From positions 1-64,000 of IMG/VR virus record IMGVR_UViG_3300028920_000043: a stretch of 64,000 nt of DNA. The stretch is one strand, 5' to 3'. Both the position numbers and the translations under genes were made by a program. The notes beneath the pieces were generated by a model. The model did no database searches. It was given only the letters and a program-made list of their open reading frames with translations, and was not told the origin of the DNA. Within the stretch, counting starts at the first letter, position 1, and each line of letters opens with the position of its first letter. Shown piece by piece: positions 11,471 to 45,998 of this stretch. Origin of the DNA: a virus.

Positions 11471-11513
11471 CTGGTTCAAAAGGTTTCACGCATGAAAGCT
11501 AATCGACTAGCTC
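11471..11513. repeat. Dispersed palindrome, copy 1 (core 11483-11498)
   Basis: CTGGTTCAAAAG-GTTTCACGCATGAAAG-CTAATCGACTAG. Confidence 0.9.
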
Positions 11514-12015
11514 AATTTGAAAACTCACCGCCCGACCAGCTTATATTATGAAGATTGCAAAACAGTTTTATTTGCTGTGTTGATCCTTGCTTCCGTATCT
11601 CACAATCCTTAACAATGTTTCTTGCCATTTCTTCAAGCGCTTTTAATTTCGATAGCGCCATCTTCAGCTCATCCAGCTCTCGCACCTCCCCTCTCATCAA
11701 ATAATCAGCCATGTCTTCCTTCTCTCTCTTCGTATGCTTCAAACGTATTTCTTTATGCTCACGAAGAAGAACCTCGCGTCCTATTTTTAATATTGATTTC
11801 TTATCCTCATATTTGTGTTCCGCCAATTGTTTATGCTTAAGAACATAGTTGAGAATATTTGTTGCACGAGAATGGGCCGATATGACCTCATAAACTTTTT
11901 CTCCAAACTCCTCAACTGTTGCTTCATTGAGATCTTGAAAAAGGCGGACCTTCGATATGGTCTGTAGTTTGTTTATTACTTTCTGCTCTGCAGAAGTCCA
12001 ATGACGATCCGCCAT
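11512..12015 (-). CDS. Helical coiled-coil protein, possibly a UvsY-like recombination mediator
   Basis: All-helical, 167 aa, next to the SSB-like gene; function inferred from context only. Confidence 0.4.
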   Translation of the reverse strand: MADRHWTSAEQKVINKLQTISKVRLFQDLNEATVEEFGEKVYEVISAHSRATNILNYVLKHKQLAEHKYEDKKSILKIGREVLLREHKEIRLKHTKREKEDMADYLMRGEVRELDELKMALSKLKALEEMARNIVKDCEIRKQGSTQQIKLFCNLHNISWSGGEFSN

Positions 12016-12051
12016 TTTCTGTTTCCTCTTTGTTACTGTTTCAGATTTGGA

Positions 12052-13242
12052 TTAACCGCCAGTGACTTCCTTGCGCGCCAAACGAATCAGATCACTGACA
12101 TCCGGCTTGACCTGTTTCGCCATAGCCACGATCTCTTTCCGCACGTCAAAGCCTTTCATTGTTTTGGTTTTCTCGCTGATCTTGAGCGTCACTATAACGC
12201 TGTCACCGGATACCTTAACCGACACGTCATCCGGAAGCTCCATTGAAGGAATGCTGGCAAAGAAATTGCCTCCAGCTGATTTGACTTTTCCCTTCTTGGC
12301 TTTGTCTGCCGCTTCTTTCTGCTTTCCCTTCGGCAGTTTCATAATTGATTGGGCAACACTTACGCTGACATTCTCCTTCTTCAGAAGATCGCGTACATTG
12401 GAATCCATCTTGGCATCGTCCAATAAGGACAATGTACTGCTCACGCGAGATTCTGAACGTCCCACCATAAGAGCCAACTGACGCTGACTCTTTACATACT
12501 TCTTGGACAAAGCCCTTTTGTATGCCTCAGCACGTTCAAACTCATTGAGATCTTCCCGTGCATCATTGGAAATCAATGATGACATAAATCTCTGACCCTC
12601 CGAGTTCCGATCTTTTACTACCTGCACCAGGATTGTCTTGTGTCCCAACTTCTTCCAGGCAGTAGCACGGCGCTCGCCATCCACCATTTCTCCCTTGGTG
12701 TTAATGGTAGGCTTATTTATAATGCCGCCTTCCTCTTTGATGGCGCTCATTAGATCCTGGAACTTCTTTGTGTCGGTTCTCAGATTGGTGCTGGTTTTCA
12801 GAATATCGGAAATCTTCACTTCAACGATTGTATCCGGTTCGTACTTACCAGCACTTTTTTGCTTCGCGGATTTCTTCTTCGCTGTTTTCTTCTTCGCTGA
12901 TGATTTTGAGGGTGGAGGTGTTTCCTCTTCTTCTTCCTCCTCTTCATCACCATCAGACTCTTCATCACCATCAGATTCTTCTTCATCTTCGTCCACTGCG
13001 GCGTCAGGAAGATTCTCATCGTCCAGAAGATCGTCATTGGCATCATCCAACCCACTCAAATCGTCATCGAATTCTTCTTCTGTTTCTTCTTCGTCATCGA
13101 TATCTTCCAGATCGATATCTTCCTTCTCCTTTTTTGCTTTCTTCTTTGCTGTTTTCTTCACGACCGTCTTTTTCTTTGCAACTTTCTTCTTCGCTGTTTT
13201 CTTGACCGGCTTTTTCTTTGCAACTTTCTTCTTTGTTGCCAT
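12052..13242 (-). CDS. ParB/Spo0J-like CTPase and HTH protein with N-terminal Lys-rich and acidic extension
   Basis: VDGERR arginine patch, NDAREDL, EFERAEAY, HTH SQRQLALMVGRSESRVSSTLSLL; about 135-aa disordered N-terminus. Confidence 0.88.
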   Translation of the reverse strand: MATKKKVAKKKPVKKTAKKKVAKKKTVVKKTAKKKAKKEKEDIDLEDIDDEEETEEEFDDDLSGLDDANDDLLDDENLPDAAVDEDEEESDGDEESDGDEEEEEEEETPPPSKSSAKKKTAKKKSAKQKSAGKYEPDTIVEVKISDILKTSTNLRTDTKKFQDLMSAIKEEGGIINKPTINTKGEMVDGERRATAWKKLGHKTILVQVVKDRNSEGQRFMSSLISNDAREDLNEFERAEAYKRALSKKYVKSQRQLALMVGRSESRVSSTLSLLDDAKMDSNVRDLLKKENVSVSVAQSIMKLPKGKQKEAADKAKKGKVKSAGGNFFASIPSMELPDDVSVKVSGDSVIVTLKISEKTKTMKGFDVRKEIVAMAKQVKPDVSDLIRLARKEVTGG

Positions 13243-13300
13243 TACAGTCTCCTCCATTTATAAAAATATAATAATAAATATTGACAACCGCCCCTATCCA

Positions 13301-13771
13301 TCATGCACTGGATATATTCATCACTCTCCTTTCCCCGTGCAATGATGTACCAGAAATGTTTTCAAGCTTATACCGTTCAGTTTCCATGTTTCCATATTTG
13401 TCAATGATATCTACTGTCTCAACCCAAGCCAAACGATCCCAAGAATTGACCTGTATGTCCTCACAAAAAGCAGTGCTGGGATTTCCAGTGGTCAGCATCC
13501 CTCGTTCAAAGACATTCTGTTTTCTGTAGGTATGCCTGAGATAAGCGCGCATCATACAGAAAACTAAATATGTTTCCAGGTTTGATTTCTTAGGTTTGTG
13601 ACGCTCAAGCAATCGGCGTTCCAATACCTCAAGCCAGAGCTGTTGATACAAATCTTTATCATGTTTCTTTTTCTTTTTCGACAAGACAATCTGACACGCC
13701 CTGTCCACCGTCCGCCTCTCATCCTCTGTCATACCATTGAATCCTTTCTTATTCCCATTCCCGGCTTTCAC
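13301..13771 (-). CDS. Sigma70 region-2-like protein
   Basis: DLYQQLWLEVLE..LERHKPKKSNLETYL resembles sigma region 2; no region-4 HTH; the true start may be near 13732. Confidence 0.5.
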   Translation of the reverse strand: MKAGNGNKKGFNGMTEDERRTVDRACQIVLSKKKKKHDKDLYQQLWLEVLERRLLERHKPKKSNLETYLVFCMMRAYLRHTYRKQNVFERGMLTTGNPSTAFCEDIQVNSWDRLAWVETVDIIDKYGNMETERYKLENISGTSLHGERRVMNISSA

Positions 13772-13837
13772 GCATGAAAGCTAATCACCTAGCTCTATCT
13801 TAAAACTTTCACGCATGAAAGCTAATGAACCAGCTCT
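13764..13837. repeat. Dispersed palindrome, copies 2 and 3 (cores 13765-13780 and 13806-13821)
   Basis: Two CTTTCACGCATGAAAG cores 41 bp apart. Confidence 0.9.
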
Positions 13838-13841
13838 ATTT

Positions 13842-14141
13842 TTAATTTCTGTTTCCGATCAACCTTAAATACTCATTCAAATTATACTCGTATATTTTAG
13901 TCTCGATTTCGTTCATGTCAAATTGCCGTGCCAATTGCCTGAATATAAACTCCTGTTCAAAGCAATTTGGTTTGTACTTCTTTCTGGGTCTACGCTCCTT
14001 ACCAAACTTTATGTTGTATTCAATAAAGAAACATGTATCCTCTTGGTAATGATAAAGCTCACAAACACGAAATCCGAGTTGGATGAACTCCATTAAAATA
14101 AAACGAGTCCTCTTTGCCGCTTCGGATCTTATATTAGGCAT
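13842..14141 (-). CDS. Hypothetical protein
   Basis: 99 aa with AGGAG RBS, directly downstream of a consensus promoter. Confidence 0.6.
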   Translation of the reverse strand: MPNIRSEAAKRTRFILMEFIQLGFRVCELYHYQEDTCFFIEYNIKFGKERRPRKKYKPNCFEQEFIFRQLARQFDMNEIETKIYEYNLNEYLRLIGNRN

Positions 14142-14168
14142 TTTATCTCCTTAAGCAAATATTTTACA

Positions 14169-14196
14169 ATTATATTATACACCCGAATACTGTCAA
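14169..14196 (-). promoter_or_regulatory. sigma70/sigmaA-type promoter
   Basis: TTGACA-16 nt-TATAAT on the minus strand, intergenic. Confidence 0.75.
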
Positions 14197-14212
14197 CTTC
14201 TAAATATTTTAA

Positions 14213-14776
14213 TTATTTTTTCTGAATATCTTCTAGAGTAATCCGGTTCTTTCTTTTCTTTTTCTTTCGCTTCTTACCCAGATACTCCTGAACATCGCTT
14301 ACCGAGCACTTCAGCTTCTCAGCTATCCTGTTGACATCCGCACCGCGCTTTCTCCAGCGGATAATCTTCTTCATTCTGAATAAGCGTTGCATACGTTCCA
14401 GTCGGCCTCGAATACTTTCCAATATTATATTACCAAAAGGATTCCTTCTGAATAACAATGACTGTCTATTCAGATAACTATACATACGAATCCTTCCGGT
14501 TCTGGGATACAGATAAGCCGCATATGGATAGTAATTCAAAACATACATGAAGTTTCTCAGATTGCCTTTATACCCAGACATCAATTTTCTAGACTTATCC
14601 ACTGGCAAGTTCTTGATTGTTCTTCCTTTCTCCGTTTCTATCTCTCTGTTCTTTGTTTTCTTCTGTACTGGTTTTGGACGTTTGGCGTACCGACTCAATC
14701 TTGATCGCTTCGGTTTTATTGGATCTTCCATTTCCGATACTTTTTCTTCCTGTCTTAGCTTCTTTCCTTGCATCAT
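14213..14776 (-). CDS. Basic protein with C-terminal HTH
   Basis: GADVNRIAEKLKCSVSDVQEYL. Confidence 0.55.
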   Translation of the reverse strand: MMQGKKLRQEEKVSEMEDPIKPKRSRLSRYAKRPKPVQKKTKNREIETEKGRTIKNLPVDKSRKLMSGYKGNLRNFMYVLNYYPYAAYLYPRTGRIRMYSYLNRQSLLFRRNPFGNIILESIRGRLERMQRLFRMKKIIRWRKRGADVNRIAEKLKCSVSDVQEYLGKKRKKKKRKNRITLEDIQKK

Positions 14777-14789
14777 CTTTCTCCTCTAA

Positions 14790-15461
14790 TTAAATTCTCG
14801 GTTGTTTGTAGTGTTCCCTTACAATATCCGCACATTTTTTCAATGCTTTTCTTCTGGCATCAGCAGTATCAGCAACATTAGCAACAGCATTAGCAACAGC
14901 ACTAGCAGTAACATTAGCAGAATAAACATTAGCAGCATAAACAGCATAAACAGCAGCCTTAGCAGAATTAGTAGCATTAGCAGCATTAGCAACCTTAGAT
15001 AAATCGTTGTGCTCACCTCTGGCATAACTTTCTGCTGTCTCAATAGCAATCAGCGGTCTTTTTTCTCCTTTTGGGATATATTTCAGAGATAGTCTTGCAC
15101 AAGCACATACGCAAAGAACCAATTTTTTTCGGCTGGCAGACCCTACCTTTCCGGCCTTTTTACCCAAAAGCCATAGCATCCAATCCCCACGCTCACAAGT
15201 GTTCCAAGCCTCTTTTAATGATTTTTTAGATTCAATCCATTGGATTGCTTCTTTACAGGCATTCATCCTTCTCAACTTTTTTATTGTTTTACTCATCCTC
15301 TTTTTCCTTTTCGGCTTCCACATAAACCTTGATGTCGGATATATGCCATATTCATCTGGATTGTCCAGCATCTCTGACATGATTCTGCAAACCGCAGACC
15401 TTACTTCATCATCTCTTATTTCTGTATAGTCTATTTCTGTTGCTCCTGCTTGTTCACTCAT
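14790..15461 (-). CDS. Imm5-like domain protein with Ala/Asn repeat
   Basis: AC.EAI.W...CERGDWMLWL and CAR...RP..AIETA pattern followed by an Ala-rich repeat; internal RBS and ATG near 15296. Confidence 0.55.
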   Translation of the reverse strand: MSEQAGATEIDYTEIRDDEVRSAVCRIMSEMLDNPDEYGIYPTSRFMWKPKRKKRMSKTIKKLRRMNACKEAIQWIESKKSLKEAWNTCERGDWMLWLLGKKAGKVGSASRKKLVLCVCACARLSLKYIPKGEKRPLIAIETAESYARGEHNDLSKVANAANATNSAKAAVYAVYAANVYSANVTASAVANAVANVADTADARRKALKKCADIVREHYKQPRI

Positions 15462-15888
15462 CCTCTTTCTCCTTTGCCTTCAATAAGTATTCATCCGGTT
15501 CTGGACAGTTATGGCAAATCCAACTCTTGAACACTTCACGATCTTTTGGAATCAATGCTCGATAAAGATTCATTGCTATCTTTATATTTGCATGATGTCC
15601 CCTGATAATTATTTCCCCCGCGTCTACTTTTCGTTTGAATATGAACCGCGCCTGTTTAATTATGTCCTCCTTAATACCCTCCCCATACTTCGCTTTTATC
15701 TTTCGTTTGATATCCGCATCAGTCATATTTGGACTTCTCGGCAATAACTCAGTAGTTATATACCACATCTTATGGCGTGATTTTCCATGCCTCTTTTTAC
15801 TGTGTCTGCGCCTTTCGGGCAAAGGGACGCCGGCCTCTTCCAACTTTTCTTTCGTGAATTCTTTTAGCGAGTTATGTGTTGATTGCAT
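15454..15888 (-). CDS. Hypothetical basic protein
   Basis: 144 aa, AGGAGG RBS. Confidence 0.6.
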   Translation of the reverse strand: MQSTHNSLKEFTKEKLEEAGVPLPERRRHSKKRHGKSRHKMWYITTELLPRSPNMTDADIKRKIKAKYGEGIKEDIIKQARFIFKRKVDAGEIIIRGHHANIKIAMNLYRALIPKDREVFKSWICHNCPEPDEYLLKAKEKEDE

Positions 15889-15906
15889 GTCCGCCTCCTC
15901 CTATAT

Positions 15907-16143
15907 TCAATTCCAAACTTTCTTACACTTAACACAGCGAAACCAAATTCTACCATTCAAACGTTGAACCACTCCTTTCTCCACTACTGGCTTACCGGGA
16001 CTACCGCAATCGTAACACTTATTACTTTGCGGCCTCTTACTAAGAACTCTCTCTACATACTCTGGTGATTCTTTTGCCTTTTCCTCAAACCGCTTTGCGC
16101 GTTCCTCATGCAACTTATCTCTGTCTATTATGTTGTCTGACAT
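15907..16143 (-). CDS. Zn-ribbon protein
   Basis: CYDC...CVKC. Confidence 0.6.
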   Translation of the reverse strand: MSDNIIDRDKLHEERAKRFEEKAKESPEYVERVLSKRPQSNKCYDCGSPGKPVVEKGVVQRLNGRIWFRCVKCKKVWN

Positions 16144-16167
16144 CCTACCCGACCCCCTTTCAAAAGG

Positions 16168-16644
16168 TCAACAAATCCCCTTAGCGATTTGCTCAAGTAA
16201 CCCAACCGAATCAACAAACACCGGATGAGTTCCATTATACTTCTCAATCAATTGAATGTAGTTTGCCATATGACGTTCACGCTCATCCGGTTTCCGAGAA
16301 CACTCAGACAGCTTGTCAGATTCCGCTGCACGTATGCATATCTTTTTAATGCACTCAGGCATCTCAACACCTGACGCCATCCACACAGCACCATCTACCT
16401 GCACCTTGACATACTGGTTACCATAATCATCATACTTCACGACTTCACGCGCCATCATCTCAAACAACTTATCCTTGTTTTCGCTGATGTACTTAACCAA
16501 CTTCTTTCTTTTTGTCCCTCCTATTTTTTCCAATGGATATAAATCAACACAACCAGTACGATCTTCCCAGTCACACAAACGATCCAACGGCGTATCTCCA
16601 TCTAGTATTCCGTATCCCCACCAACCCATAATGCACCTCCTCAT
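16168..16644 (-). CDS. Hypothetical protein
   Basis: MGWWGYGILDGD start typical of a phage family; the likely start is a few codons in. Confidence 0.6.
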   Translation of the reverse strand: MRRCIMGWWGYGILDGDTPLDRLCDWEDRTGCVDLYPLEKIGGTKRKKLVKYISENKDKLFEMMAREVVKYDDYGNQYVKVQVDGAVWMASGVEMPECIKKICIRAAESDKLSECSRKPDERERHMANYIQLIEKYNGTHPVFVDSVGLLEQIAKGIC

Positions 16645-16672
16645 ATAAAACGTAAAAGGTTAATAAATCAAA

Positions 16673-17077
16673 TCAATCTTCTGCGTCTTCTGCTTCTGCG
16701 TCTTCGAGGCCACCAGCATCCCACGTCTTATACTCAGCTATACGTTCTGGATACAATGAACCATTACCATACACATCTTCAATCCAACGAATCTCATAAG
16801 CCAACCTTTTAATAGCGAAGTGCCCAATGTCGTCTTTATGCACAGCAAATAAAATGTCACTGCGACCACCAGTGCCTTCAACAGGCATTCCATTCTCCAT
16901 GTCCGGAGCGGTCTCGATAATCTCAAGAAACTGTATACGAGTATTAAGCTCATCCATGAAGAATTTCTCAAACTGTTCTACAGTAGAATCACCCAGAGTA
17001 GTTCCGGGCCATACGCATACCTGATTAAAACTATCCTTGCGTTCTACATTAGCCTTCTCTTTGGTTGCTGTTGTCAT
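16673..17077 (-). CDS. Hypothetical protein
   Basis: 134-aa ORF in the small-gene cluster. Confidence 0.65.
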   Translation of the reverse strand: MTTATKEKANVERKDSFNQVCVWPGTTLGDSTVEQFEKFFMDELNTRIQFLEIIETAPDMENGMPVEGTGGRSDILFAVHKDDIGHFAIKRLAYEIRWIEDVYGNGSLYPERIAEYKTWDAGGLEDAEAEDAED

Positions 17078-17090
17078 CCTTCACCGCCTT

Positions 17091-17360
17091 TCAATAATAG
17101 TTAATGGTTCCGCCATAACCACAACGTCTGCACTCCCAATGCTCACCTCCCGAATCCGGAGAGCACCAACTATCCGTTATGACAATATCATGGCCTCTGA
17201 TTTTACAAATAATAGCACAAACACCATCACGAATAAGATACCAAATGAACTCTAACAGGTAAAACTTTTCGCCATTGGCATGACAACACATCTCATGATC
17301 TTGCCACTCTTCCCTTAAAAAGCGTATGGCTTTCTTTATGAGACTTATTACCTTCTTCAT
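17091..17360 (-). CDS. Hypothetical protein with C-terminal Cys motif
   Basis: CKIRGH...CRRC. Confidence 0.55.
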   Translation of the reverse strand: MKKVISLIKKAIRFLREEWQDHEMCCHANGEKFYLLEFIWYLIRDGVCAIICKIRGHDIVITDSWCSPDSGGEHWECRRCGYGGTINYY

Positions 17361-17363
17361 GAC

Positions 17364-17648
17364 TTACCGCCTTTCAATTATGTTCTTGGCTCTTTCTTCT
17401 TTTGATTTTTTGAGCCACTCAATTACTTGATCCACAAGCTCACCAGTGTCGTCTGAATAAAACGACTGTCCATCCCAATCGACCTTATAAGGAGTGTGCA
17501 CTATTCTAGCATGATACGTTGCCTTATTTGCAATCGCCATCCGAAGGTCCATTGTTTCATTCTTGATCTGAGGCTGTAACTGATCCATGATTTGCTGTAG
17601 TCGTTTGCTTGACATTATAACTCCTTTCTGCTTTAAGTAAATAATCAA
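17364..17648 (-). CDS. Hypothetical protein
   Basis: ORF in the small-gene cluster; likely starts at MSSKRL. Confidence 0.55.
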   Translation of the reverse strand: MIIYLKQKGVIMSSKRLQQIMDQLQPQIKNETMDLRMAIANKATYHARIVHTPYKVDWDGQSFYSDDTGELVDQVIEWLKKSKEERAKNIIERR

Positions 17649-17941
17649 GAACGGTCTAGTGAGGTAGAATAGCTCTGTTCAATTTTCCATATTCCAATGT
17701 GTTGTTTTTCTGTTAAAGGGGCTTTTCCATAACAATTGGTCAACAAATCCAACTCCCACGCTGTCAAGTTTTCCTGATGGTGCTTTAGTATTTCACGTAT
17801 CCTTCTATCCGTATCGGATTCATGGGATGCTACATCAAACGAAGGATTATCCGGATCTTTTGTAATCTGAACAGGACCGCCAATACCTTGACCATATGGA
17901 CCAATCCCTTTTTTATTCATTTGCTTTCTCCTTATATGCAA
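17645..17941 (-). CDS. Hypothetical protein
   Basis: LTAWE...LTEKQ motif common in phage ORFs. Confidence 0.55.
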   Translation of the reverse strand: MHIRRKQMNKKGIGPYGQGIGGPVQITKDPDNPSFDVASHESDTDRRIREILKHHQENLTAWELDLLTNCYGKAPLTEKQHIGIWKIEQSYSTSLDRS

Positions 17942-18537
17942 CCGAGACGCTCAGCGATCTCTCGGCATGTCCAACATGGCTCTGTCTGTCCTTTCGATCT
18001 GCACTCTGCATGATTCAAGAATGTCTGTTCGAGTTTAGATCTCACGCCAGGAATTATTTCCATCAGGATGTGCTGCAGTTGTTCCTTCGTCAACCTCTTT
18101 ACCCAGTCCTCCGGAACAGGATTGATTGATGGCACTGCCATATCCACTTGGATGGTCTTACCTGAATCCCCGTTCCACATATAACCGAGCTTGGCATTTT
18201 TCAACAATGCACATACTGCCTCACCAATCTTCTTGGCATCAATACCAATCTCTTTGTTCTTCTTGATGGTTAATGAGCAGTATCGAATATGCAACCAACC
18301 ACTGCTATACATACTGTCTTTGTCCTGCCTGTGATAATACACAGCGCCCTTGATTGATTCCGCACTGCGCTTCCCCGCATCAATCAATCCTTCTGCTATC
18401 TCAGCCAGTTCGAATCCAGCGCAACTCGCGCAACAACTGAAATTCATACGGGCAAGGAATCCCTGCTTCCTCAACTTCTTAAATACATCTTTCAACGCTT
18501 CAACTCTTTCCTGTGATACTGTTCTCTGCCTCCTCAT
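17932..18537 (-). CDS. Conserved hypothetical protein (DUF6891-like)
   Basis: F..LRKQG.LARMNFSCCASC and YYHRQD; start after AGGAGGCAGAACA. Confidence 0.6.
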   Translation of the reverse strand: MRRQRTVSQERVEALKDVFKKLRKQGFLARMNFSCCASCAGFELAEIAEGLIDAGKRSAESIKGAVYYHRQDKDSMYSSGWLHIRYCSLTIKKNKEIGIDAKKIGEAVCALLKNAKLGYMWNGDSGKTIQVDMAVPSINPVPEDWVKRLTKEQLQHILMEIIPGVRSKLEQTFLNHAECRSKGQTEPCWTCREIAERLGCI

Positions 18538-18551
18538 TGTTCTGCCTCCTA

Positions 18552-23067: not shown

Positions 23068-23121
23068 TTCAAATTGATCCAGTTCATTAGCTTTCATGCG
23101 TGAAAGCTTTTTAACTAGCTC
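23068..23121. repeat. Dispersed palindrome, copy 4 (core 23091-23106, opposite orientation)
   Basis: CCAGTTCATTAG-CTTTCATGCGTGAAAG-CTTTTTAACTAG. Confidence 0.9.
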
Positions 23122-23881: not shown

Positions 23882-23907
23882 AATTCACCTCCTCTAAAAA
23901 ATGTTAT

Positions 23908-23980
23908 ATGGCTGTCTCATCAGTACCGCGGCACCACCCGCGATATATGAGCGCCCAAACAAGCGCGCTCATTTCAACAA
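23908..23980 (-). ncRNA. Type II hammerhead ribozyme
   Basis: Minus strand: TTGTT-GAAA-TGAGCGC(loop)GCGCTCA-TA-TATCGCGG(GTGGTG)CCGCGGTA-CTGATGA-GACAG-CCAT. All core nucleotides and three stems are present; loop I can pair with the 3' GCCAT (pseudoknot); predicted cleavage between 23946 and 23945. Confidence 0.9.
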
Positions 23981-29314: not shown

Positions 29315-29360
29315 GAGCTAGTTGGTTAGCTTTCATGCGTGAAAGCTTTTGAACTAGTTC
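29315..29360. repeat. Dispersed palindrome, copy 5 (core 29330-29345)
   Basis: CTAGTTGGTTAG-CTTTCATGCGTGAAAG-CTTTTGAACTAG. Confidence 0.9.
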
Positions 29361-35825: not shown

Positions 35826-35827
35826 AC

Positions 35828-36778: not shown

Positions 36779-36828
36779 TTTCAAATTGGACTAGTTCATT
36801 AGCTTTCATGCGTGAAAGCTTTTGAACC
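36779..36828. repeat. Dispersed palindrome, copy 6 (core 36803-36818)
   Basis: TTTCAAATTGGACTAGTTCATTAG-CTTTCATGCGTGAAAG-CTTTTGAAC; extra half-arm CTAGTTCATT at about 36762. Confidence 0.9.
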
Positions 36829-38814: not shown

Positions 38815-38842
38815 ATTATATTCCTGCTGAAATCGAAAGCAA
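38815..38842 (-). promoter_or_regulatory. sigma70-type promoter of the modification/replication operon
   Basis: TTGCTT-16 nt-TATAAT. Confidence 0.6.
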
Positions 38843-38897
38843 TAGAAAAATAAAAAAAACTAGGAAGGAGGGGATGCGTTCTTTTGGGCTTGCGTTG

Positions 38898-38997
38898 TTG
38901 TATTTATATTTATATTTTATATGTATTCATTTTTTATTTCTATATTCCATATACCATACACTATTGTATATTATATTATATATTATATTATATATAG
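38898..38997. other. Extremely AT-rich (TA-repeat) intergenic tract
   Basis: TATATTATATTATATATTATATTATATATA and similar runs between the tail and replication modules. Confidence 0.7.
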
Positions 38998-39017
38998 AGC
39001 GTCCAAGAAAAAACTCG

Positions 39018-42000
39018 TTAAGATACCCTACTGAAATAATAACCACCGGCGCCTTGCGCTTCTATTATACTACTTACTTCAATCTTCCAATGAACATAAT
39101 AAGGCTGTATGGCTTTTTTGACAGTCTTTTGGTATTCTGTTACGGTAGTGCTTAAAGTTTCGCCACTCCAAGAGAAGGGAGCAAATCCTTTGGTTGCCCT
39201 AGACACTACTACCGTCACTTCCATAATCACTTTTTCAGTACTTGGATTATAATCGAAAGAGAATGAAATACTTTTTGCCATGTAACTGTTAGCAGTATGA
39301 TTATAGGTTATGGAAGTAGATATGGATTCCTTGTAATACTGCTCACTTCCTGCTTTGTATCCGTAGAAAACAGCACTGGAGTTATTAGTATCGTGCAGAC
39401 TCTCATGGAATCGAATTGTGGCAATAGCATTATTTGTGTAGTATCCATTTCCTTTATCGTTGGGCCAACCACTCGTATTCAAATGAGTAAAATAACTGCC
39501 TATGTCAATGGTTCCTAAATATGGCCTTGCATTATTAACGATCTGAGACATGGATTGAAAATCGTCTTCCAAGAATGTAAGATCAACAGTCATTTGATCT
39601 CCTATTCTTGGCGGAGAAGTAGGATAGTATTGAGTATCGATTGTGAGTATTTTTCCTGCCTCTGAAAAGGTATAAGGATACGTGCTGAGACCTTCAGGCC
39701 ACGCAGTCCCGGTCTCCGCGGATTTGACCCATTCAACATACGCTTTTCTGTTCAGCCCTGACCGACCAGGCCATCCAGGAATTATCTTATAATAGTTATA
39801 AATTGATGACCCTGATTTCTTGGTCGATATATAAAAATATACATCATGGTCGGGACTGTTTATGGCGATGTCTTTTATACCGTTTGCTGTAATAGATTCT
39901 CCGTGGATATGTGCTTCAAAATCTGGCGCACTATAACCCAATAAAAGACCTTCTATTTGGTACCCATTATTGTTGATTGCTTCCAATGGGGAAACATAAA
40001 GAACGCAAGCATCTTCGTCCACGTATGCCCCGGTTGAGGCGTTCACTCTCAGCTTTCCATATTCAATGTTATCCGTATCCAAGGTTGATAGAATAGGCAC
40101 CATAAAGACATCGCCATCGTAAGGACTCGGCCACATGGTGGTAAACAACCATACTTTTGCAAGAGAATCCTTGTTTATTCTTATCAGGTCTCGGTAATTG
40201 GAATTCGTATAATTATAAATGTTGATAAAAAGACAGTCTTTGGATTCATTGTAAATAAGAGACGACCAATCTCCTTTCCACATATTATCATTGGAAGCAT
40301 ACCCATGAACCTCAACATCCGTCTCTACGTAATCAGCATCTCCGTTGAATAGTTTTTCTTTATTTATTTTTGCAAGGCGTACTTTGTCATCCCGCCACCG
40401 TCTCATGTATAGACAATACAGATAAGTACCATCATCACACATTGACCGGATATAAGTCTGGATTGTTCCGGCACTTTCTACGGTTGGCGCATCAGTCGGT
40501 TCTTTGAATAAATATAACTTGTCTCCCGCTTGAAGAAAGCTGGCCGGGGTTCCAAAAGCACTATAAAGAAATCCTTGAACCCAGTACATGTTATAAACAG
40601 TATAAGCGGCATAATTCTCGCCATCATGCTTTACAAACTCACCATTCCGGTAAACATATAAATAGTATCCTTGACATCTCCAATCAGAATAAAGATGATA
40701 CATGTTAGGAGAATCCCACCACACCTGTCCGTCTTCAAATGCGGGACTGACATACTCATCTCCTGTAGCAAAATATATCTTTACATAACTTGGATTGAAT
40801 ACATAAGTACTTAATACCGGAACGTAATTATCCCCAAGAATAACATTGTCTCTATGTCTTTCTGTTTGGTTATAATAATCTACTTCTTGAAGCCTTACAC
40901 CAGTATCCTGTTCATCAGTATCTTCCGGCCAAGTACACCTATATATCTTTCCATCATCTGCACTTTCAGAATTGAAATCTTTACAGATTCCGACCGACAT
41001 TAAATAATTACTATTCAGCTCGGTTTCATTCGCCAGAAGTTTTGTACTTCTGAGAATCTTGGTATGCTTCAAATAATAATTCTGATCTTGTTGATCATCC
41101 GCCGGATCCCTGCGAGATAGAATCTTAGACTGTATTGGAGTTATCTGAAGATGCGCGTGGCAATCCATCTGAATGGAATCGGTTTTATAGTACATAGAGA
41201 ACGGCTTAATCTCATTGGTATACAAAGCAATAGGTTGGCGTTCAGACATCAATGGACTCTTATCCAAAACTCTCACAATATTTGCTGATGTAAGTTCCGA
41301 TGGCAATGGAACGCTTCTCAATATCTCTGCATTGGTATATCCTGCAAACCATATGGCACTAGCAGATGACCAATCGAATATTCTTTGATCTCCATAAAGA
41401 CGTACCACTACCAAATGCGTGGAAGTGAGAACGTATAATCTATCAGATCCGTTGTATCTGATTATACTCTTTGAAGTGCCAGGCAAATCAAGAATCTTAT
41501 TGAGACTGAAAGTAGCCAACTGTGATCCAGCGTAATTCCAATATCCCAAACTCTCTACGGTCCCATAGGTGTATGAAATGTCTCCCCAGTTTCCTCCCCA
41601 TATTCTCACCGCTTGTTGAGGATAATTCTGACGCTTGGTAGTAGAGCTTCCAGGAACCAAAGTATACAGTCCATCAGATTTCAGTAGAACATAACAACTC
41701 ATGCTCTGTCCGTGTTGGGCCCAATAATTAGTACCGCTATCCCCGCTGTTATTAGCAGGCGTTCCTACTACTGCATCCAATATTCCATCTTCCGGATCGA
41801 AAGAATCCCCACTGTTCTTCAAGTAGTTTACTGTGTAGGATGGAGTAAAGGTTTTGCATACATGAGATATATCAAAGCTGATTTTGGTAGGAGTATTTGC
41901 CGGCCGCTCAGAAGCCGCCGGACCCGATACATTATAGATCACTCCGCCCACCAATGCCGGTAGTTTGTTTCTGGCGGGAAACCAACTGAATACTTCTGAG

Positions 42001-43397
42001 TAGCTCCCTACCGATGTATTATCAGAATGATATCCAATGGCTGTAAGCCTCTCGGGGGCTACAGTCAGCTTTTCAGGATTATCACTTGCAACCATTTCCC
42101 CTTTGAGTAAAGATAAAGAAAGATCGATGACTTTTACTTCTTGATCAAATAAGCCATATAAGAAATTTCTGTTCTGAATAAAATCTGTGATATACCAAGG
42201 CTCTACTTTCGCAAGAGTCGCCCCGCCTATCTGTTTACCAGTATGATCAAATATAGGATTGTTAAGTAATGTTCCGCCTTCGTCATACTTGGGAAACTGT
42301 AATGCCATTGCTTGAGCATCGTTGAATATAGTACTCGCTTTTATATCAGCAAAAGATATATCCAAATAACGCTTGCTATACTGACTCTGAAATATATCTT
42401 TGAATTTCTTTTTCTCAAACTTATTAAGATCCGCAGCACTCCACCAAGCCAGGTAACCATACCGTCCAAGATTAAAATCCAATGACGGATAATAAGTTCC
42501 CAGAAATAACTTGTGAAGCAAATTGACATAGTAAGAATTCATTGAGCGCGTGGGGATAAACTTGGCTAATTGAGATCCGTTATAGTATGTCCAGAAACTC
42601 GTGGAAGGAAAGTTTCGTTGGTTGCTATCGGTATCTTCAAACACCAATCCTATATCGGAAGTCAATACAACGTTTATTCCCGGACGTACTTTGAATAATG
42701 TAGGGCCGGAAACATAGGAAGGAGTGAACTCCACAAAGTCTGTTCCCAATGCACCGTAAAGAGGACCGGAAGGAGTTTGAGCACTTGTTATCGTGGGATA
42801 AAGGGTAACATCTACCTTATGCCCTACTGTCGGTGAGGAAGAAACAGTTAAAGTAAAAAAGAGATTATAGCCTATTGAGTTTCCAGGGGTAGTTTGAAAT
42901 GTTTGAGATCCAATAGTTATCGTAACCACTCCAGATTCAATCGCTGTTATCTCAGCAGTGAAATTACTTTGAACTGGATTCCCGTCATCATTCCACTTAT
43001 CTACATCAAAAGCTACTCCCAACGAATCTCCTGTCTTTGTCACCCATGGAACTCCATCACTGAAAGTTGCCTCTCCTATATAGCCTTCCCCGGCATATAA
43101 CATTCTACCATCTTTGGTAAATGCATTTGCCGTTCTGTCAGTATTATACGTGTTAAAAGGATCTGGATATATGCAAGGGATTATTAATTGATTATCCAAA
43201 AAGGTTTCAAAGAAGCGATCAAATTGTGGAACGAAACCAATCAGTGCTGCAGACTTTTCATCGTAGACAGGAAAGTGAATGTACTCTTGATACTTCCGAG
43301 TAACCATTCTGGCTACTCGTTCTCTATCAAGATATTCTTGAGGAAAATCAAAAGGTTTTAATGTAGGACCACCAGTGCTCATTCTGTTTACCGTCAA
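39018..43397 (-). CDS. Large tail/receptor-binding protein
   Basis: 1459 aa, rich in Y/S/T/G beta-type sequence, last gene of the tail module. Confidence 0.55.
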   Translation of the reverse strand: MTVNRMSTGGPTLKPFDFPQEYLDRERVARMVTRKYQEYIHFPVYDEKSAALIGFVPQFDRFFETFLDNQLIIPCIYPDPFNTYNTDRTANAFTKDGRMLYAGEGYIGEATFSDGVPWVTKTGDSLGVAFDVDKWNDDGNPVQSNFTAEITAIESGVVTITIGSQTFQTTPGNSIGYNLFFTLTVSSSPTVGHKVDVTLYPTITSAQTPSGPLYGALGTDFVEFTPSYVSGPTLFKVRPGINVVLTSDIGLVFEDTDSNQRNFPSTSFWTYYNGSQLAKFIPTRSMNSYYVNLLHKLFLGTYYPSLDFNLGRYGYLAWWSAADLNKFEKKKFKDIFQSQYSKRYLDISFADIKASTIFNDAQAMALQFPKYDEGGTLLNNPIFDHTGKQIGGATLAKVEPWYITDFIQNRNFLYGLFDQEVKVIDLSLSLLKGEMVASDNPEKLTVAPERLTAIGYHSDNTSVGSYSEVFSWFPARNKLPALVGGVIYNVSGPAASERPANTPTKISFDISHVCKTFTPSYTVNYLKNSGDSFDPEDGILDAVVGTPANNSGDSGTNYWAQHGQSMSCYVLLKSDGLYTLVPGSSTTKRQNYPQQAVRIWGGNWGDISYTYGTVESLGYWNYAGSQLATFSLNKILDLPGTSKSIIRYNGSDRLYVLTSTHLVVVRLYGDQRIFDWSSASAIWFAGYTNAEILRSVPLPSELTSANIVRVLDKSPLMSERQPIALYTNEIKPFSMYYKTDSIQMDCHAHLQITPIQSKILSRRDPADDQQDQNYYLKHTKILRSTKLLANETELNSNYLMSVGICKDFNSESADDGKIYRCTWPEDTDEQDTGVRLQEVDYYNQTERHRDNVILGDNYVPVLSTYVFNPSYVKIYFATGDEYVSPAFEDGQVWWDSPNMYHLYSDWRCQGYYLYVYRNGEFVKHDGENYAAYTVYNMYWVQGFLYSAFGTPASFLQAGDKLYLFKEPTDAPTVESAGTIQTYIRSMCDDGTYLYCLYMRRWRDDKVRLAKINKEKLFNGDADYVETDVEVHGYASNDNMWKGDWSSLIYNESKDCLFINIYNYTNSNYRDLIRINKDSLAKVWLFTTMWPSPYDGDVFMVPILSTLDTDNIEYGKLRVNASTGAYVDEDACVLYVSPLEAINNNGYQIEGLLLGYSAPDFEAHIHGESITANGIKDIAINSPDHDVYFYISTKKSGSSIYNYYKIIPGWPGRSGLNRKAYVEWVKSAETGTAWPEGLSTYPYTFSEAGKILTIDTQYYPTSPPRIGDQMTVDLTFLEDDFQSMSQIVNNARPYLGTIDIGSYFTHLNTSGWPNDKGNGYYTNNAIATIRFHESLHDTNNSSAVFYGYKAGSEQYYKESISTSITYNHTANSYMAKSISFSFDYNPSTEKVIMEVTVVVSRATKGFAPFSWSGETLSTTVTEYQKTVKKAIQPYYVHWKIEVSSIIEAQGAGGYYFSRVS

Positions 43398-43696
43398 GAA
43401 ATATTAGAGGCTACCAATGCCGCAGGAACCAGATTCATTATTCCAGAGGTAAGAAGATCACTGGCAACAAGGGGGTAATGAGTACTGAATGCTAATCCCA
43501 AATCTCTAGCATATAAATGATGGTGAATTGAAATGCCTCCACTATCTTCATCGGATACACCTCCACCACCTCCCGGGACCACTATTTCTTCTTCCGGCTC
43601 TTCTCGCAATGTAGATCTTCTGACACTCTCGAGACGATTAACGCGCTTCTCCAGCGCGCGTATATATGCCAGTACTTGATTGACATCTGTTCTCAT
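43394..43696 (-). CDS. Small tail-associated protein
   Basis: IRALEKRVNRLE coiled coil and poly-Gly; coupled to neighbours. Confidence 0.55.
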   Translation of the reverse strand: MRTDVNQVLAYIRALEKRVNRLESVRRSTLREEPEEEIVVPGGGGGVSDEDSGGISIHHHLYARDLGLAFSTHYPLVASDLLTSGIMNLVPAALVASNIS

Positions 43697-45924
43697 TATT
43701 TGTTCCTTAACGTGCCGGAAGTTTTGAATCCTTGAAGATCCAATGCCAAGCCTACAACAGTCAATTCCAATCCAGTGAATTCTGAATTCTCAAACTCATT
43801 CACTTTATCTCCCGGTCTCAATGTTGCATCGAATCTTGGATTCATCCACGTTGCCGAGAATGCCGCATCTTTTAATCCGGCCACTTCAGAATCAATGAAG
43901 GCAGCAAGCTCTTCGTAGTTATTGAATTTTATTTCCGTCTTCAAATTCAATCCAGTTTTGCCTGTCGTCTCCTCCCATTCTAAAGGATCAGTTTCCACAG
44001 TAGGTATTTTCGGCCTGTACTTACCATCCGGATCTGGTAGCATAGATTCAAACTTTAGTTGCGCTTTGAAATCCCCTTCGCGGTCTTCCGTGCGTTCTAT
44101 GGTAATGGGTACAGTGCCTTGACGTTCGGAATCATAATACAACCGAGCATTAGTCTTGAGAACGGCAGTCAAGAATATTCGTTTGGTAATCCAGGTATCC
44201 GGATTACTGGCCGTAATGTTATTATAGTTCGTTCCATCATACGAAGTGAAGTTAATTGCTTCTCGTACCACATTGAAAGTCGAGAATTCCAATGTTCCAG
44301 TTTTGGGATCGAACTTATAACCTGATTCGGTTCCAGATACTTCTTCATATACCTCTATGAGACTCGTGGTGGCCTTACTCGGATCTTGTCTGATTTCATT
44401 GACTATCACTTTCAACTTCGGATGAACACTTTTCTTCTTCTTGTCATCCCAGACTTCCGTGATCAGTTTCGGTAATGCCGTTGCCTGCTTTCCAGGAAAG
44501 AACCATGATGTTTCAATATCGAATGCCTCCGGAGTACCAAATATACCATCAAGATGTTCTTCGATTCTTTCGTAATCATAATCTTCTGGGATTCTCCAAC
44601 AGCGAAATACCTTACCGATGTTCTTACCGCTCGAGTCATTGGCATCTGTGGTCTTCAAACTCTTGGAGAGTTGTGCCATGGCCTGCGCCGTTGTCTTTCC
44701 CGCGGATCTCAAGTTGGCAAACTCAGTCTTGAAATTAGTGAAGTCTTCATCTGACCATGCCGGTTCCAATTCAATCGTTGTCTCTACTTCAATATTTCCT
44801 CCTACACCGTGGAGTCTGTTTACAACATCCGCAGCATTTTGACTGACACTCAAACTACCCACATTATATTCCGGATGATCCGTTACTCCGTTTCCGGAAA
44901 CACCAATCACTACTCGTCTTGTTTTTTCTTGCGCGTTCAATACTGCTGTTTGATACAACTCACTTGGGGAAGGAGTACCACTCGTTCCTGTAACTGCTGA
45001 CGGATTGTTCCGTGTATTTTCAGGACGTGTTGAAAACACGATTAAATCTGACTCTTTCTTTTTATGAAAGACATAACTGTTCATATCGTCCAAGTACCAA
45101 CTGTTCAATGGATCCGCGTCTTTCACTATTCTAGTAATGGCATTTGTGAAATTGGATCCCTCCAACTCATAATCAAAAGCATTATGACTTGAGTTCAGTT
45201 GAATCTCAGTCTCTTCGGGCAGACGAATGACTCCGGGCAATCGCTGACCGATTTCCAGAAACAACATATACTCCAGAACATCATCCAGAGTCCAAAACTG
45301 CGCCTTGTCCGAATCCTTAGAAAATACATGAACCTTTCTGGAATAAGGATTCAATAATCCTGTTCCGGACTCTGCGGATACGCTTACTTTATTGGGAGAC
45401 TTATCCGGCTTGCCATTCTCATTGAATACCAATCTCTGAAAAGGATTCTTGGCATAAGAAGTAACGTTCCTATCTTCATCATATTCCGTTGCCATCCATG
45501 AACCGTGCGCTTGCTTTGATGATAAGACAAACTTATAACCGACCGCACGAAAAGAATTGCCGTCCGCACTACTACCCAACTCGTTCGATGGCTCTAAAAT
45601 GATTCCGCGGAATAGTTGAATTGATCCGACCGGCAGATGCGCCCAATATGCTTTTATCTTTATCGGTGTTCCGATTACCGTACCGCCTTCGGAAAAGCGT
45701 TCCTGAGGAAACGATACTTCCGCAGTATTGTTCTCATCATTGATTCCCAAAGTGATTCCAGAAACCGATGCTACTGCTACACGATTCGGTGACAGCGTTG
45801 CTCGCCGTCCGAAGGTAGTATGATAAAATCCAGACCACCAAGACAAGCTACCGGTGCGTTCTGCTTGCACGTAGATTCTTGGAGGCTGAACCAAGGAAGG
45901 ACTGTATGTTAATCCAACACCCAT
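43696..45924 (-). CDS. Tail hub/baseplate-like protein
   Basis: LFRGII, VVNRLHGVG and LRPGDKV segments resemble Tal/gpD-type hub proteins; position in the tail module. Confidence 0.5.
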   Translation of the reverse strand: MGVGLTYSPSLVQPPRIYVQAERTGSLSWWSGFYHTTFGRRATLSPNRVAVASVSGITLGINDENNTAEVSFPQERFSEGGTVIGTPIKIKAYWAHLPVGSIQLFRGIILEPSNELGSSADGNSFRAVGYKFVLSSKQAHGSWMATEYDEDRNVTSYAKNPFQRLVFNENGKPDKSPNKVSVSAESGTGLLNPYSRKVHVFSKDSDKAQFWTLDDVLEYMLFLEIGQRLPGVIRLPEETEIQLNSSHNAFDYELEGSNFTNAITRIVKDADPLNSWYLDDMNSYVFHKKKESDLIVFSTRPENTRNNPSAVTGTSGTPSPSELYQTAVLNAQEKTRRVVIGVSGNGVTDHPEYNVGSLSVSQNAADVVNRLHGVGGNIEVETTIELEPAWSDEDFTNFKTEFANLRSAGKTTAQAMAQLSKSLKTTDANDSSGKNIGKVFRCWRIPEDYDYERIEEHLDGIFGTPEAFDIETSWFFPGKQATALPKLITEVWDDKKKKSVHPKLKVIVNEIRQDPSKATTSLIEVYEEVSGTESGYKFDPKTGTLEFSTFNVVREAINFTSYDGTNYNNITASNPDTWITKRIFLTAVLKTNARLYYDSERQGTVPITIERTEDREGDFKAQLKFESMLPDPDGKYRPKIPTVETDPLEWEETTGKTGLNLKTEIKFNNYEELAAFIDSEVAGLKDAAFSATWMNPRFDATLRPGDKVNEFENSEFTGLELTVVGLALDLQGFKTSGTLRNK

Positions 45925-45937
45925 GATCTGGCTTCCT

Positions 45938-45998
45938 GGCTTTCACGCATGAAAGCTTTTGAACTAGCTCTGTCTTAAAACTTTCACGCATGAAAGCC
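45938..45998. repeat. Dispersed palindrome, copies 7 and 8 (cores 45940-45955 and 45981-45996)
   Basis: Two cores 41 bp apart; linker CTAGCTCTGTCTTAAAA nearly identical to that of the 13.8-kb pair. Confidence 0.9.

Follow-up and report, generated by a model that had tools for sequence, protein, structure and literature searches.

An orphan ParB and a dispersed parS-like palindrome at cistron starts in a large, lytic-looking phage

The parB operon

The stretch of phage DNA analysed here (the window) comprises 64,000 nucleotides of a 111,210-bp record, in which the minus strand is the coding strand throughout. At 12052-13257 (minus strand) it encodes an orphan ParB of 401 amino acids, which is immediately preceded by a gene for a 143-residue protein with a weak Sigma70 region 2 match (13301-13732, minus) and immediately followed by a UvsY-like gene (11512-12015, minus) with 49% identity to its counterpart in a relative, G001, described below. 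Beyond these lies the gene for a gp32-like single-strand-binding protein, whose sequence combines a long acidic tract with a Lys-rich tail (10144-11457, minus); the UvsY-like and gp32-like assignments are leads only. The phage comes from marine sediment.

The ParB has an N-terminal tail that is Lys-rich and then acidic, followed by a ParB_N fold, an HTH_ParB domain and a clade-specific C-terminal domain. The HTH_ParB profile (PF17762) is matched with an E-value of 4.1e-11 and 43.4 bits against a cut-off of 22.6 bits, while the match to PF02195 scores 20.5 bits, below the cut-off of 26.3 bits. The protein aligns through its recognition helix with structures of Myxococcus, Helicobacter and Caulobacter ParB, Spo0J and Noc (PDB matches to ParB, Spo0J and Noc of 1e-5 to 1e-11), and it carries the DGERRATA motif and the helix GRSESRVSSTLSLL to which a preliminary description of this DNA had drawn attention. 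Judged by these profile and structure matches, it belongs to the ParB family. The box II Gly, Arg and Arg and the box III Asn and Arg are retained, and the 150 best homologs show little or no variation at these positions. There are two departures, the third box II Arg being replaced by Thr and the box III Glu by Ser; the loss of this catalytic Glu suggests that any CTP hydrolysis would be slow.

No parA gene had been seen in the window, and this holds more widely. A search with PF13614 found no ParA-type ATPase in the present record or in that of G001, both of them incomplete, and recovered one in 14 of 14 control genomes; a 10-kb metagenome contig from a near-identical phage, which bridges the record (L029), contains no ParA-sized ORF. 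For the sequence that these records cover, a ParABS partition system, in which a ParA/Soj-type ATPase is the partner, was rejected on this ground.

A palindrome confined to cistron starts

A motif search with the core CTTTCA-YGCR-TGAAAG gave eight matches in the window, at each of the eight positions first described. Dinucleotide shuffles of the window (n=100), which served as the chance baseline, contained 0.07 matches on average, and a count of eight was reached in 0/100. Counted genome-wide, as had been proposed, there are 15 copies in the whole record, seven of them beyond the window (64466, 74448, 74513, 92538, 92603, 110242 and 110398), and the bridging contig adds three more to give about 18 in total. 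A single decayed copy lies at 102374.

Three copies flank the parB operon, in agreement with the preliminary description. The copy at 11483-11498, which has one mismatch (first base G on the plus strand), separates the UvsY-like gene from the gp32-like gene, which is the first gene after it, and has an equivalent in G001 (site 73404). The other two form a tandem pair with a 41-bp period, of which the proximal core (13765-13780) lies 33 nt ahead of the sigma-like gene, and the distal core (13806-13821) is downstream of a sigma-70-type promoter match, TTGACA-16-TAAAAT, at 13921-13894 on the minus strand. Further along the window, a core with both outer arms (23091-23106) is found 36 nt upstream of the start of a small ORF, one at 29330-29345 separates a clamp-loader gene from a UDG-PolA DNA polymerase gene, and one at 36803-36818 separates an SNF2 helicase gene from a 5'-3' exonuclease gene. 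A second tandem pair, again with a 41-bp period, consists of a proximal core (45940-45955) 15 nt upstream of a 742-aa gene and a distal core (45981-45996) that is preceded by a terminator-like hairpin at 46086-46063; a stretch of about 200 nt ahead of 45981 shares homology with the sequence that precedes site 64466.

The placement at gene boundaries noted earlier proved to be strict. Every core lies between ORFs with a start codon 15-54 nt downstream, and there are no copies within gene bodies, in a genome that is covered to about 95% by ORFs at their maximal extent. The sites are not restricted to one temporal class, being found ahead of early-region, replication and structural genes, and most of them sit inside polycistronic units that have no recognisable promoter.

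The centre of the core is TGCG or CGCA in every copy and no other sequence, and at four base pairs it makes the spacer 2 bp longer than that of parS, as the preliminary description had stated. On the gene strand the window has five TGCG and three CGCA centres. That both orientations occur is thus correct, but the argument built on it, that this points to a site acting at the level of DNA, is a weak one, since the nine asymmetric centres of G001 all face one way relative to transcription. Likewise, the 40-bp palindrome proposed as an extended consensus is a fair consensus, but both outer arms are present in only about one third of copies, and changes in an outer arm on one side are never compensated on the other. 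Boxes of the sequence GAGCTAGTTCA adjoin the core in this phage and both flank flavours are found on the sense strand; the boxes are absent from G001. Tandem copies occur with periods of 41, 55, 60 and 65 bp, and the copy at 23091 is flanked by a 12-bp direct repeat.

A relative with the same layout and a different palindrome

G001 is a syntenic relative whose ParB, PolA and RecA are 48%, 53% and 65% identical to those of this phage. The preliminary description had proposed asking whether motif and ParB occur together in related phages; in this one relative, G001 encodes a ParB and carries 28 copies of a palindrome that shares the geometry TTTxAYG|CRTxAAA and differs in sequence (GTTTAAC-GC-GTTAAAC in G001 versus a CTTTCA-YGCR-TGAAAG core here). 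Its sites also lie at cistron starts, so that this placement applies to all copies of both phages (15 in the record, three in the bridging contig and 28 in G001), and they bracket the parB operon in the same way, the common order being site, sigma-like gene, parB, UvsY-like gene, site and gp32-like gene. Most of the other site positions differ between the two phages.

Within each genome the copies (18 and 28) are near-identical, and in G001 conservation ends at the 24-bp dyad, with nothing conserved outside it. Homogeneity within a genome combined with divergence between genomes points to a sequence-specific factor acting in trans, and near-identical copies with no conservation beyond the dyad are the hallmark of a protein that binds specific sequences as a dimer. 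The co-variation, which is between two genomes only, therefore supports the view of the sites as targets for a sequence-specific trans factor that evolves together with them.

The same comparison bears on the idea, raised in the preliminary description, of a REP-like mobile hairpin. A selfish REP- or MITE-like miniature inverted repeat that colonises the gaps between genes and is of no use to the phage would fit the strictly intergenic location, the fast turnover of copies, the tandem periods and the direct repeat around the 23091 copy. However, a search with PF01797 identified no Y1/HUH transposase in either phage record, so that the proposed search of the rest of the genome for ParA or an HUH transposase, as far as the record covers it, yielded neither. 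Furthermore, the G001 copies are only 24 bp long and lack flanking target duplications, and G001 has a different sequence but keeps both the geometry and the pair of sites around the parB operon, which indicates selection and not drift. A REP/RAYT or MITE mobile repeat was accordingly rejected as a match to a known element, and we regard a selfish origin as highly improbable.

The presence of all copies at gene starts fits an expression signal, which could equally well operate at the RNA level. The element might be a short hairpin in 5'-UTRs and between cistrons, with a stem of 8-10 bp and a YGCR tetraloop just upstream of the Shine-Dalgarno sequence, which would be bound by a sequence-specific phage or host factor, serve as a processing site, stabilise transcripts against 5'-exonucleases or, as a leaky attenuator, break up long one-strand transcripts. 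All copies lie where one cistron meets the next, on the transcribed strand, those of G001 often overlap the upstream stop codon and end 3-14 nt before the Shine-Dalgarno sequence, and its nine asymmetric centres are co-oriented with transcription (9/9 CGCA on the sense strand and 0 TGCG). At 45981 and 64466 the hairpin would, in addition, lie roughly at the transcript start predicted from the conserved upstream block. Set against this, a function in structure only would allow compensated drift of the stem, but the copies are identical in sequence and show no compensation; the G001 hairpin, whose stem spans about 10 bp, is weak, at about -5.4 kcal/mol, and folds no better from the sense strand than from its complement; in this phage the sense strand carries both orientations of the centre and both flank flavours; and an Rfam search of the element matched no family. 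We consider an RNA element rather unlikely.

Two specific forms of such an element were rejected. The RNase processing stem put forward in the preliminary description would, as an RNase III hairpin of the T7 or SP82 type, have a paired stem of about 20 bp or more, but so long a stem is absent from G001 and from two thirds of the copies here, and the uncompensated outer arms argue against it. An intrinsic terminator would have a G+C-rich stem and then a U run on the transcribed strand, but the stems here are A/T-rich with T runs of 3-4 bases, and a terminator scan flagged only the 23091 copy, on the plus (antisense) strand.

ParB as the candidate binder

We infer that, in each phage, ParB is the most plausible binder of the sites, on the basis of the half-site, the occurrence of the 4-bp-centre geometry at parAB loci elsewhere, and the co-variation of residue 173 with the first base of the site. 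The half-site (TTTCA/TGAAA) is typical of the ParB family. Canonical parS is a 16-bp palindrome, TGTTTCAC|GTGAAACA, with G as base 1 and half-sites that abut at a 2-bp CG centre, whereas the phage core has C as base 1 and a 4-bp centre; no canonical parS is among the repeats reported. In two unrelated betaproteobacterial replicons (a Noviherbaspirillum contig and a betaproteobacterial MAG), three palindromes each of the type CTTTCACGCGTGAAAG, which is nearly the same core with a CGCG centre, surround the parA-parB operon, one of them directly before the start of parA, indicating that parS with a 4-bp centre occurs naturally. Unlike the phage, these plasmid-type loci encode ParA, one of them together with a Rep3 initiator, and their sites are local rather than dispersed. 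Identity between their ParBs and the phage protein is only about 18%, and the recognition helices differ.

Caulobacter ParB uses R173 to form a hydrogen bond with guanine 1 of parS, and Noc uses Q173 to read adenine 1 (PMC7383237). The corresponding residue is Glu in this phage, where base 1 is C, and Lys in G001, where base 1 is G, and both pairings fit the usual preferences of these amino acids for bases. In the betaproteobacterial ParBs, however, position 173 is Leu and base 1 is C, so that a residue-to-base code would not be general. Furthermore, the phage protein has substitutions at four parS-contact residues (R173E, N178S, G201S and R204Q) that ParB, or ParB and Noc alike, conserve, which leaves the retention of TTTC in the site without a simple explanation. 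A symmetric dimer also does not predict the strand bias of the G001 centres, which is a point against ParB as the reader of the sites.

Most proteins of both phages lack a family assignment, and another DNA-binding protein could therefore be the real partner. The sites would then be operators of a different phage-encoded dimeric protein, and their likeness to parS a coincidence within an A/T-rich dyad. Dyad symmetry and homogeneity within each genome would be expected whatever the binder, the GAGCTAGTTCA boxes hint at a second factor, and there are weak helix-turn-helix and ribbon-helix-helix-like matches near parB (GerE-like at 14213-14776, and RHH-like in a 53-aa ORF after G001 site 71259). 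Nevertheless, no alternative candidate is both conserved in the two phages and adjacent to a site, the only clear HTH protein with sequence specificity that both share is ParB, and neither the parAB-linked geometry elsewhere nor the behaviour of residue 173 would follow. For these reasons we think a different binder unlikely.

The gene upstream of parB suggests a further role for the sites, as promoters or activator sites used with the sigma-like protein, which a ParB clamp might deliver or activate, as the T4 clamp does for gp55. The 143-residue protein and its ortholog in the same position in G001 are 29% identical (E 2e-10) and match the same positions of the Sigma70 region 2 profile (E 0.017 and 5.9e-4), but both matches are under the Pfam cut-off. 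The N-terminal 72 residues are modelled as a helical bundle with weak Foldseek matches that include several ECF sigma factors, which makes the protein a candidate phage sigma-like factor; fusions of a ParB fold to a Sigma70 domain have been reported in bacteria (bioRxiv 10.1101/2025.10.10.680097). Identical copies upstream of genes also resemble the promoter sets of phage-specific transcription systems, which would pair an asymmetric conserved block and a fixed start site with a phage RNA polymerase or sigma factor. No signature of a T7-like or multisubunit RNA polymerase (including the DFDGD motif) was found in either phage. However, a perfect dyad without asymmetric conservation in its flanks does not look like a promoter, the centre takes both orientations in this phage, and the genes served belong to early-region, replication and structural classes. 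In places the Shine-Dalgarno sequence begins 3-5 nt past the core, and a start site downstream of the core would truncate it. A promoter function is, on balance, quite improbable.

Known systems and a possible role in gene expression

The nearest parallel may be KorB of the IncP plasmid RK2, a ParB-family HTH protein that controls many operons from about a dozen dispersed palindromes at or near gene starts. KorB is reported to act as a CTP-dependent clamp, has the ParA-type IncC and the co-repressor KorA as partners, and its operators are fixed relative to promoters. The phage resembles the KorB/OB system in that many copies of one palindrome are dispersed over the starts of genes or operons and an HTH protein of the ParB family is encoded alongside; no RNA run was found to contain the phage sequence. 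It differs in that ParA is missing, most sites lie in polycistronic units with no recognisable promoter, the ParB has a charged, H1-like tail and the element is a large, lytic-looking phage.

Canonical parS and NBS sites, by comparison, are not confined to gene starts, unlike the phage sites, which are found only at intergenic gene starts. With chromosomal ParB-parS and Noc-NBS the phage system shares the fold, the HTH, the TTTC half-site and residue 173 as a switch for base 1 (PMC7383237), and with Noc-NBS also dispersed sites and a ParB that lacks a ParA partner. It is set apart by half-sites 2 bp further apart, C at base 1, the four replaced contact residues and the box III Ser, and the phage ParB lacks the membrane-targeting helix of Noc.

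Among phages, the Cluster O mycobacteriophages (the Corndog group) are not obviously temperate, encode a protein with a ParB-like domain, have no parA and carry more than 30 invariant 17-bp dyad repeats over the genome, for which a dimeric DNA-binding protein was predicted and the function was left unknown (PMC4351075). Their repeats are unrelated in sequence to those described here, about a third of them are intragenic with no tie to start codons, and a link to the ParB-like protein was neither proposed nor tested (PMC4351075). Cluster A stoperators and Cluster K start-associated sequences, which act on gene expression genome-wide, also comprise dozens of identical short sites in short gaps or before starts (PMC4351075). 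However, stoperators lack symmetry, follow the direction of transcription and are recognised by the immunity repressor of a temperate phage, and start-associated sequences include the ribosome-binding site, whereas the phage dyad sits upstream of the Shine-Dalgarno sequence.

The reading we tentatively prefer is that a dimer of the orphan ParB binds the palindromes, as diverged parS sites with their TTTCA/TGAAA half-sites moved 2 bp apart, and controls expression genome-wide. Since every copy is at the start of a cistron or operon, bound ParB would most likely govern gene expression across the whole genome in the manner of KorB, and the strict placement suggests control of expression of the KorB or stoperator kind rather than segregation. 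The preliminary description had proposed an orthogonal ParB-site pair for compaction, positioning or operon-wide regulation; of this, the pairing of the sites with a co-evolving trans factor stands, but compaction or positioning fails to explain why the sites are at cistron starts. From its sites ParB may spread as a CTP-dependent clamp and would serve as a roadblock or silencer, and its Lys-rich, histone-H1-like tail could help to coat or condense the phage DNA.

The fullest version of this proposal, in which an orphan ParB CTP clamp with an H1-like tail governs transcription of the whole genome from dozens of sites, either as a roadblock or silencer or, with the adjacent sigma-like protein, as a mobile activator comparable to the T4 sliding clamp with gp55, and has its specificity re-tuned between related phages through residue 173, is a doubtful one as it stands. 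If true, control of an entire viral genome by a ParB clamp would be a previously undescribed phage system.

Sites at the starts of cistrons

A search of the window for the core CTTTCA-CGCA-TGAAAG, allowing up to two mismatches, returned exactly the eight copies listed in the preliminary description, against a mean of 0.07 matches in shuffled sequence. The full 111,210-bp record, whose first 64 kb make up the window, contains 15 cores, with a 4-bp centre that is always TGCG or CGCA, plus one decayed copy at 102374. A 10.3-kb metagenome contig from a near-identical phage (L029) matches window positions 1-145 and record positions 110796-111210 at 98-100% identity; it bridges both ends of the record, which makes the phage genome circular or circularly permuted, with a length of ~121 kb. 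L029 supplies ~9.7 kb of small genes that the record is short of and brings the genome-wide count to 15 cores in the record and three more, in tandem, upstream of a gene whose product is Lys-rich.

Essentially all genes of the record lie on the minus strand and, read on that strand, every core falls in an intergenic gap with a start codon 15-54 nt downstream. The sites occupy ~11 loci, each marking the start of a module; those headed by sites are the portal, head, tail, 742-aa gene, exonuclease, DNA polymerase, parB operon and gp32-like gene modules. Since ~95% of the genome is coding (ORFs taken at maximal extent), and 18 of 18 sites in this phage and ~28 of 28 in its relative G001 lie at cistron starts, this placement cannot be due to chance. 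We know of no such confinement to cistron starts for canonical parS or NBS sites, and the difference implies either that the role of the element is tied to gene expression or that sites arise by insertion. That the element is a mobile repeat, the REP-like hairpin of the preliminary description, is nevertheless most improbable, as a search for an HUH transposase found none in either phage record.

The invariant part of the element in this phage is a 16-20-bp dyad. Many copies carry a GAGCTAGTTCA box flanking the core on one side or both, the two-base step from box to core being TT/TT or AA/AA in all cases and never complementary, and some have an additional small dyad. Because both outer boxes are present in only about one third of copies, and a mutated outer box is never compensated by its partner, the 40-bp palindrome described previously holds as a consensus of modules and not as a conserved stem.

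Matches to sigma-70-type promoters near the sites did not exceed shuffle expectation, and the candidate late-promoter motifs TATATAAG, TATAAATA and SPO1-like TTAGG-N-GATTT were not enriched at them. A perfect TTGACA-16-TATAAT at 14196-14169 (-) and a TTGACA-16-TAAAAT at 13921-13894 (-), just upstream of the parB-operon sites on the gene strand, are the best candidates in that region for host-type promoters. The stretches at window 45925-46180 and record 64425-64680 (L056:425-680) share ~200 nt of homology upstream of sites 45981 and 64466, each with a terminator-like hairpin and a conserved block whose final TTTATGCGG directly adjoins the core; the shared stretch may be a terminator-promoter-leader cassette that is present twice, or a structured RNA. 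At the early end of the record (110200-110730; L058) two copies of the palindrome lie interspersed with further short ACGACTTRAGTCATATG-like repeats. Window positions 23906-23979 (-), in a long stretch with few genes (23.6-24.7 kb), match a type II hammerhead ribozyme (41.1 bits, above the Rfam gathering threshold). Five consecutive large genes (543-655 aa) separate the portal gene from a MuF-like head gene (record 78065-89602; L056/L057); they gave no Pfam match, a search of them for the RNA polymerase DFDGD motif was negative, and one of them has a homologue in G001.

A syntenic relative with its own palindrome

An exhaustive HMMER search identified a small clade of ParB proteins with a common charged tail and a specific C-terminal domain, which includes P0004, P0005 (36% identity), P0006 (Glu173), P0027, P0034 and P0073. 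As queries for ParB relatives, neither ParB by itself nor an alignment of seven sequences yielded a usable relative; only P0004 gave one. It is encoded on G001, a 76-kb IMG/VR contig that is syntenic with this phage, the two sharing RecA (65% identity), a clamp loader (63%), an SNF2 helicase (55%), DNA polymerase PolA (53%), a gp32-like protein (53%), DnaB (49%), a UvsY-like protein (49%) and ParB itself (48%). G001 has a ParB of the clade and its own set of dyads, but not a single copy of the core of this phage. The G001 palindrome, aaAAGTTTAAC-GC-GTTAAACTTTt, is present in 28 copies (centre CGCG in 17, CGCA in nine, degenerate in two). A TTTxAYG|CRTxAAA layout is common to the sites of both phages, with half-sites that differ at base 1 (C in this phage, G in G001) and base 5 (C versus A).

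Conservation in G001 is confined to the 24-bp dyad and does not extend to the flanks. Most copies end 3-14 nt upstream of a Shine-Dalgarno sequence, and 12 of the 28 overlap the upstream stop codon, with the dyad supplying a TAA stop. Site positions are mostly unshared between the two phages; the order site, small gene, parB, UvsY-like gene, site, gp32-like gene is kept in both, as is the flanking of the parB region by sites that had been noted earlier. A set of sites that is uniform in each genome, changes from one genome to the other and keeps its geometry is the pattern left by a co-evolving, sequence-specific trans factor.

The element could alternatively act at the RNA level, as a hairpin, since it is always transcribed and adjoins the ribosome-binding site, and the nine CGCA centres of G001 share one orientation relative to transcription. 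We consider this rather unlikely, however, because the copies are sequence-identical without compensation, the stem in G001 is weak, with no advantage of the sense over the antisense strand, and both orientations are used in this phage. The RNase III version of the processing stem that was formerly suggested fails because the outer boxes are uncompensated and G001 conservation stops at the dyad, and a terminator fails on a terminator scan.

Comparison of 20 kb with phage GenBank records by megablast brought up no close relative, and exact matches to the core in IMG/VR came to no more than one each in 27 contigs, a chance-level yield, and these contigs were unrelated by tblastn. Repeated palindromes were not found in two contigs encoding distant ParBs (L034, L055) or in one encoding a distant PolA relative (L028), a contig with a G001-type match (G002) has one copy only, and an IMG/VR scan with the gp32-like domain returned nothing beyond G001. 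In the literature library searched, no paper contains either core sequence. The only sequencing run listed for this DNA is a marine-sediment DNA sample, probably its source, and no RNA run is listed.

ParB as the candidate binder

The phage ParB (12052-13257 (-), 401 aa) opens with a Lys-rich run and then an Asp/Glu-rich one, together spanning residues 1 to ~135; the remainder matches HTH_ParB (4.1e-11) and, more weakly, ParB_N, and can be aligned with solved ParB, Spo0J and Noc structures. Relative to the 150 best of 7,448 homologues it retains the Gly-x-Arg-Arg, which is invariant, as well as Asn and Arg of box III, with Ser at the box III Glu position. Among the parS-contact residues (Caulobacter numbering) Q162, G170 and S172 are kept, whereas K171 is replaced by Arg, R173 by Glu, N178 by Ser, G201 by Ser and R204 by Gln. 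The apparent lack of parA extends beyond the window, with no ParA-type ATPase found in the full record, L029 or G001. parB heads a T4-like recombination module of UvsY-like, gp32-like, RuvC, RecA/UvsX, SbcC-like and SbcD-like genes. Long Lys-rich (AKKK-type) runs also occur in the gp32-like protein (10144-11457 (-)), where ~170 acidic residues precede a Lys-rich tail, and in the product of L029:4387-5022, and very long Asp/Glu tracts are found in ParB and the gp32-like protein; such charged runs seem to be a lineage-wide trait of DNA-handling proteins.

Known half-sites of the ParB family are GTTTCAC (parS) and ATTTCCC (NBS), and the phage half-site, judged by its sequence, is of this type. 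Its diverged geometry, with a 4-bp centre, is confirmed, and base 1 is C. Scanning a genome collection with the 20-nt core matched two betaproteobacterial loci, each with three CTTTCACGCGTGAAAG-type dyads around a parA-parB operon and one also with a Rep3 initiator; a 4-bp centre is therefore found in naturally occurring parS. Four AGCTTTCAC-type dyads, grouped into two inverted pairs that surround an A/T-rich repeat, are present at 1127-1325 of L030, a 2-kb metagenome contig (GC 54%) with no clear ORFs.

Glu commonly prefers cytosine, and Lys guanine. In the Caulobacter ParB-parS and Noc-NBS co-crystals base 1 is read by residue 173, which is Arg with G and Gln with A (PMC7383237). This phage combines Glu173 with C at base 1, and G001 Lys173 with G, a co-variation that agrees with the common preferences and is suggestive, not conclusive, because it comprises one pair in two genomes. 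Leu173 accompanies C in the betaproteobacterial ParBs, and the residue 173 rule is therefore not universal. A cognate protein-site system is very likely present, with ParB as the leading candidate for the binder; less probably, another, unannotated DNA-binding protein binds the sites.

Expression control and the ParB family

Sites lie ahead of early-region genes as well as of replication and structural genes, which argues against a promoter or operator of a single temporal class. In G001 the gap between stop codon and site is too small for a promoter and no upstream element is conserved, and most sites must therefore lie inside polycistronic units. Of the roles proposed earlier for an orthogonal ParB-site pair, operon-wide regulation is favoured: genome-wide control of expression is more likely than partition. 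At the starts of cistrons a bound protein, or a loaded clamp, would block or tune transcription, and the H1-like tail of ParB may add DNA coating. As working models, KorB and its scattered operators and the stoperator concept come closest, and the system would be a variant of the ParB/KorB/Noc kind. A precedent for dispersed phage dyads with a ParB-like protein and no ParA is provided by Cluster O mycobacteriophages, whose 17-bp dyads number more than 30, are invariant and have no assigned function (PMC4351075).

An attractive variant would couple ParB with a putative sigma-like factor. In the two phages the genes that immediately precede parB (13301-13732 (-) and L053:11533-11955) are orthologues, a pairing kept in both, and each weakly matches Sigma70 region 2 at the same profile positions; fusions of ParB-fold and Sigma70 domains are reported from bacteria (bioRxiv 10.1101/2025.10.10.680097). 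The small gene may thus encode a phage sigma-like factor. Its model has low confidence (pLDDT 52) with no Foldseek match reaching E 0.001, and a complex prediction with ParB, at a score of 0.01, speaks neither for nor against the pairing.

Members of the ParB family are CTP switches with varied outputs: ParB segregates chromosomes, Noc positions the division septum, KorB silences plasmid operons and VirB counter-silences virulence genes. Orphan phage ParBs are common and, to our knowledge, almost none has an assigned role. The phage pair is a natural experiment: the two ParBs are orthologous, the two site sequences share one unusual geometry, and a single residue is the candidate for specificity. 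The rules by which ParB recognises its site, and those for the spacing of half-sites, can therefore be tested directly. If ParB does bind the sites, the two protein-site pairs would be orthogonal tools for DNA labelling or silencing. The long-unexplained dispersed dyads of other phages, such as the Cluster O mycobacteriophages, may likewise find an explanation here.
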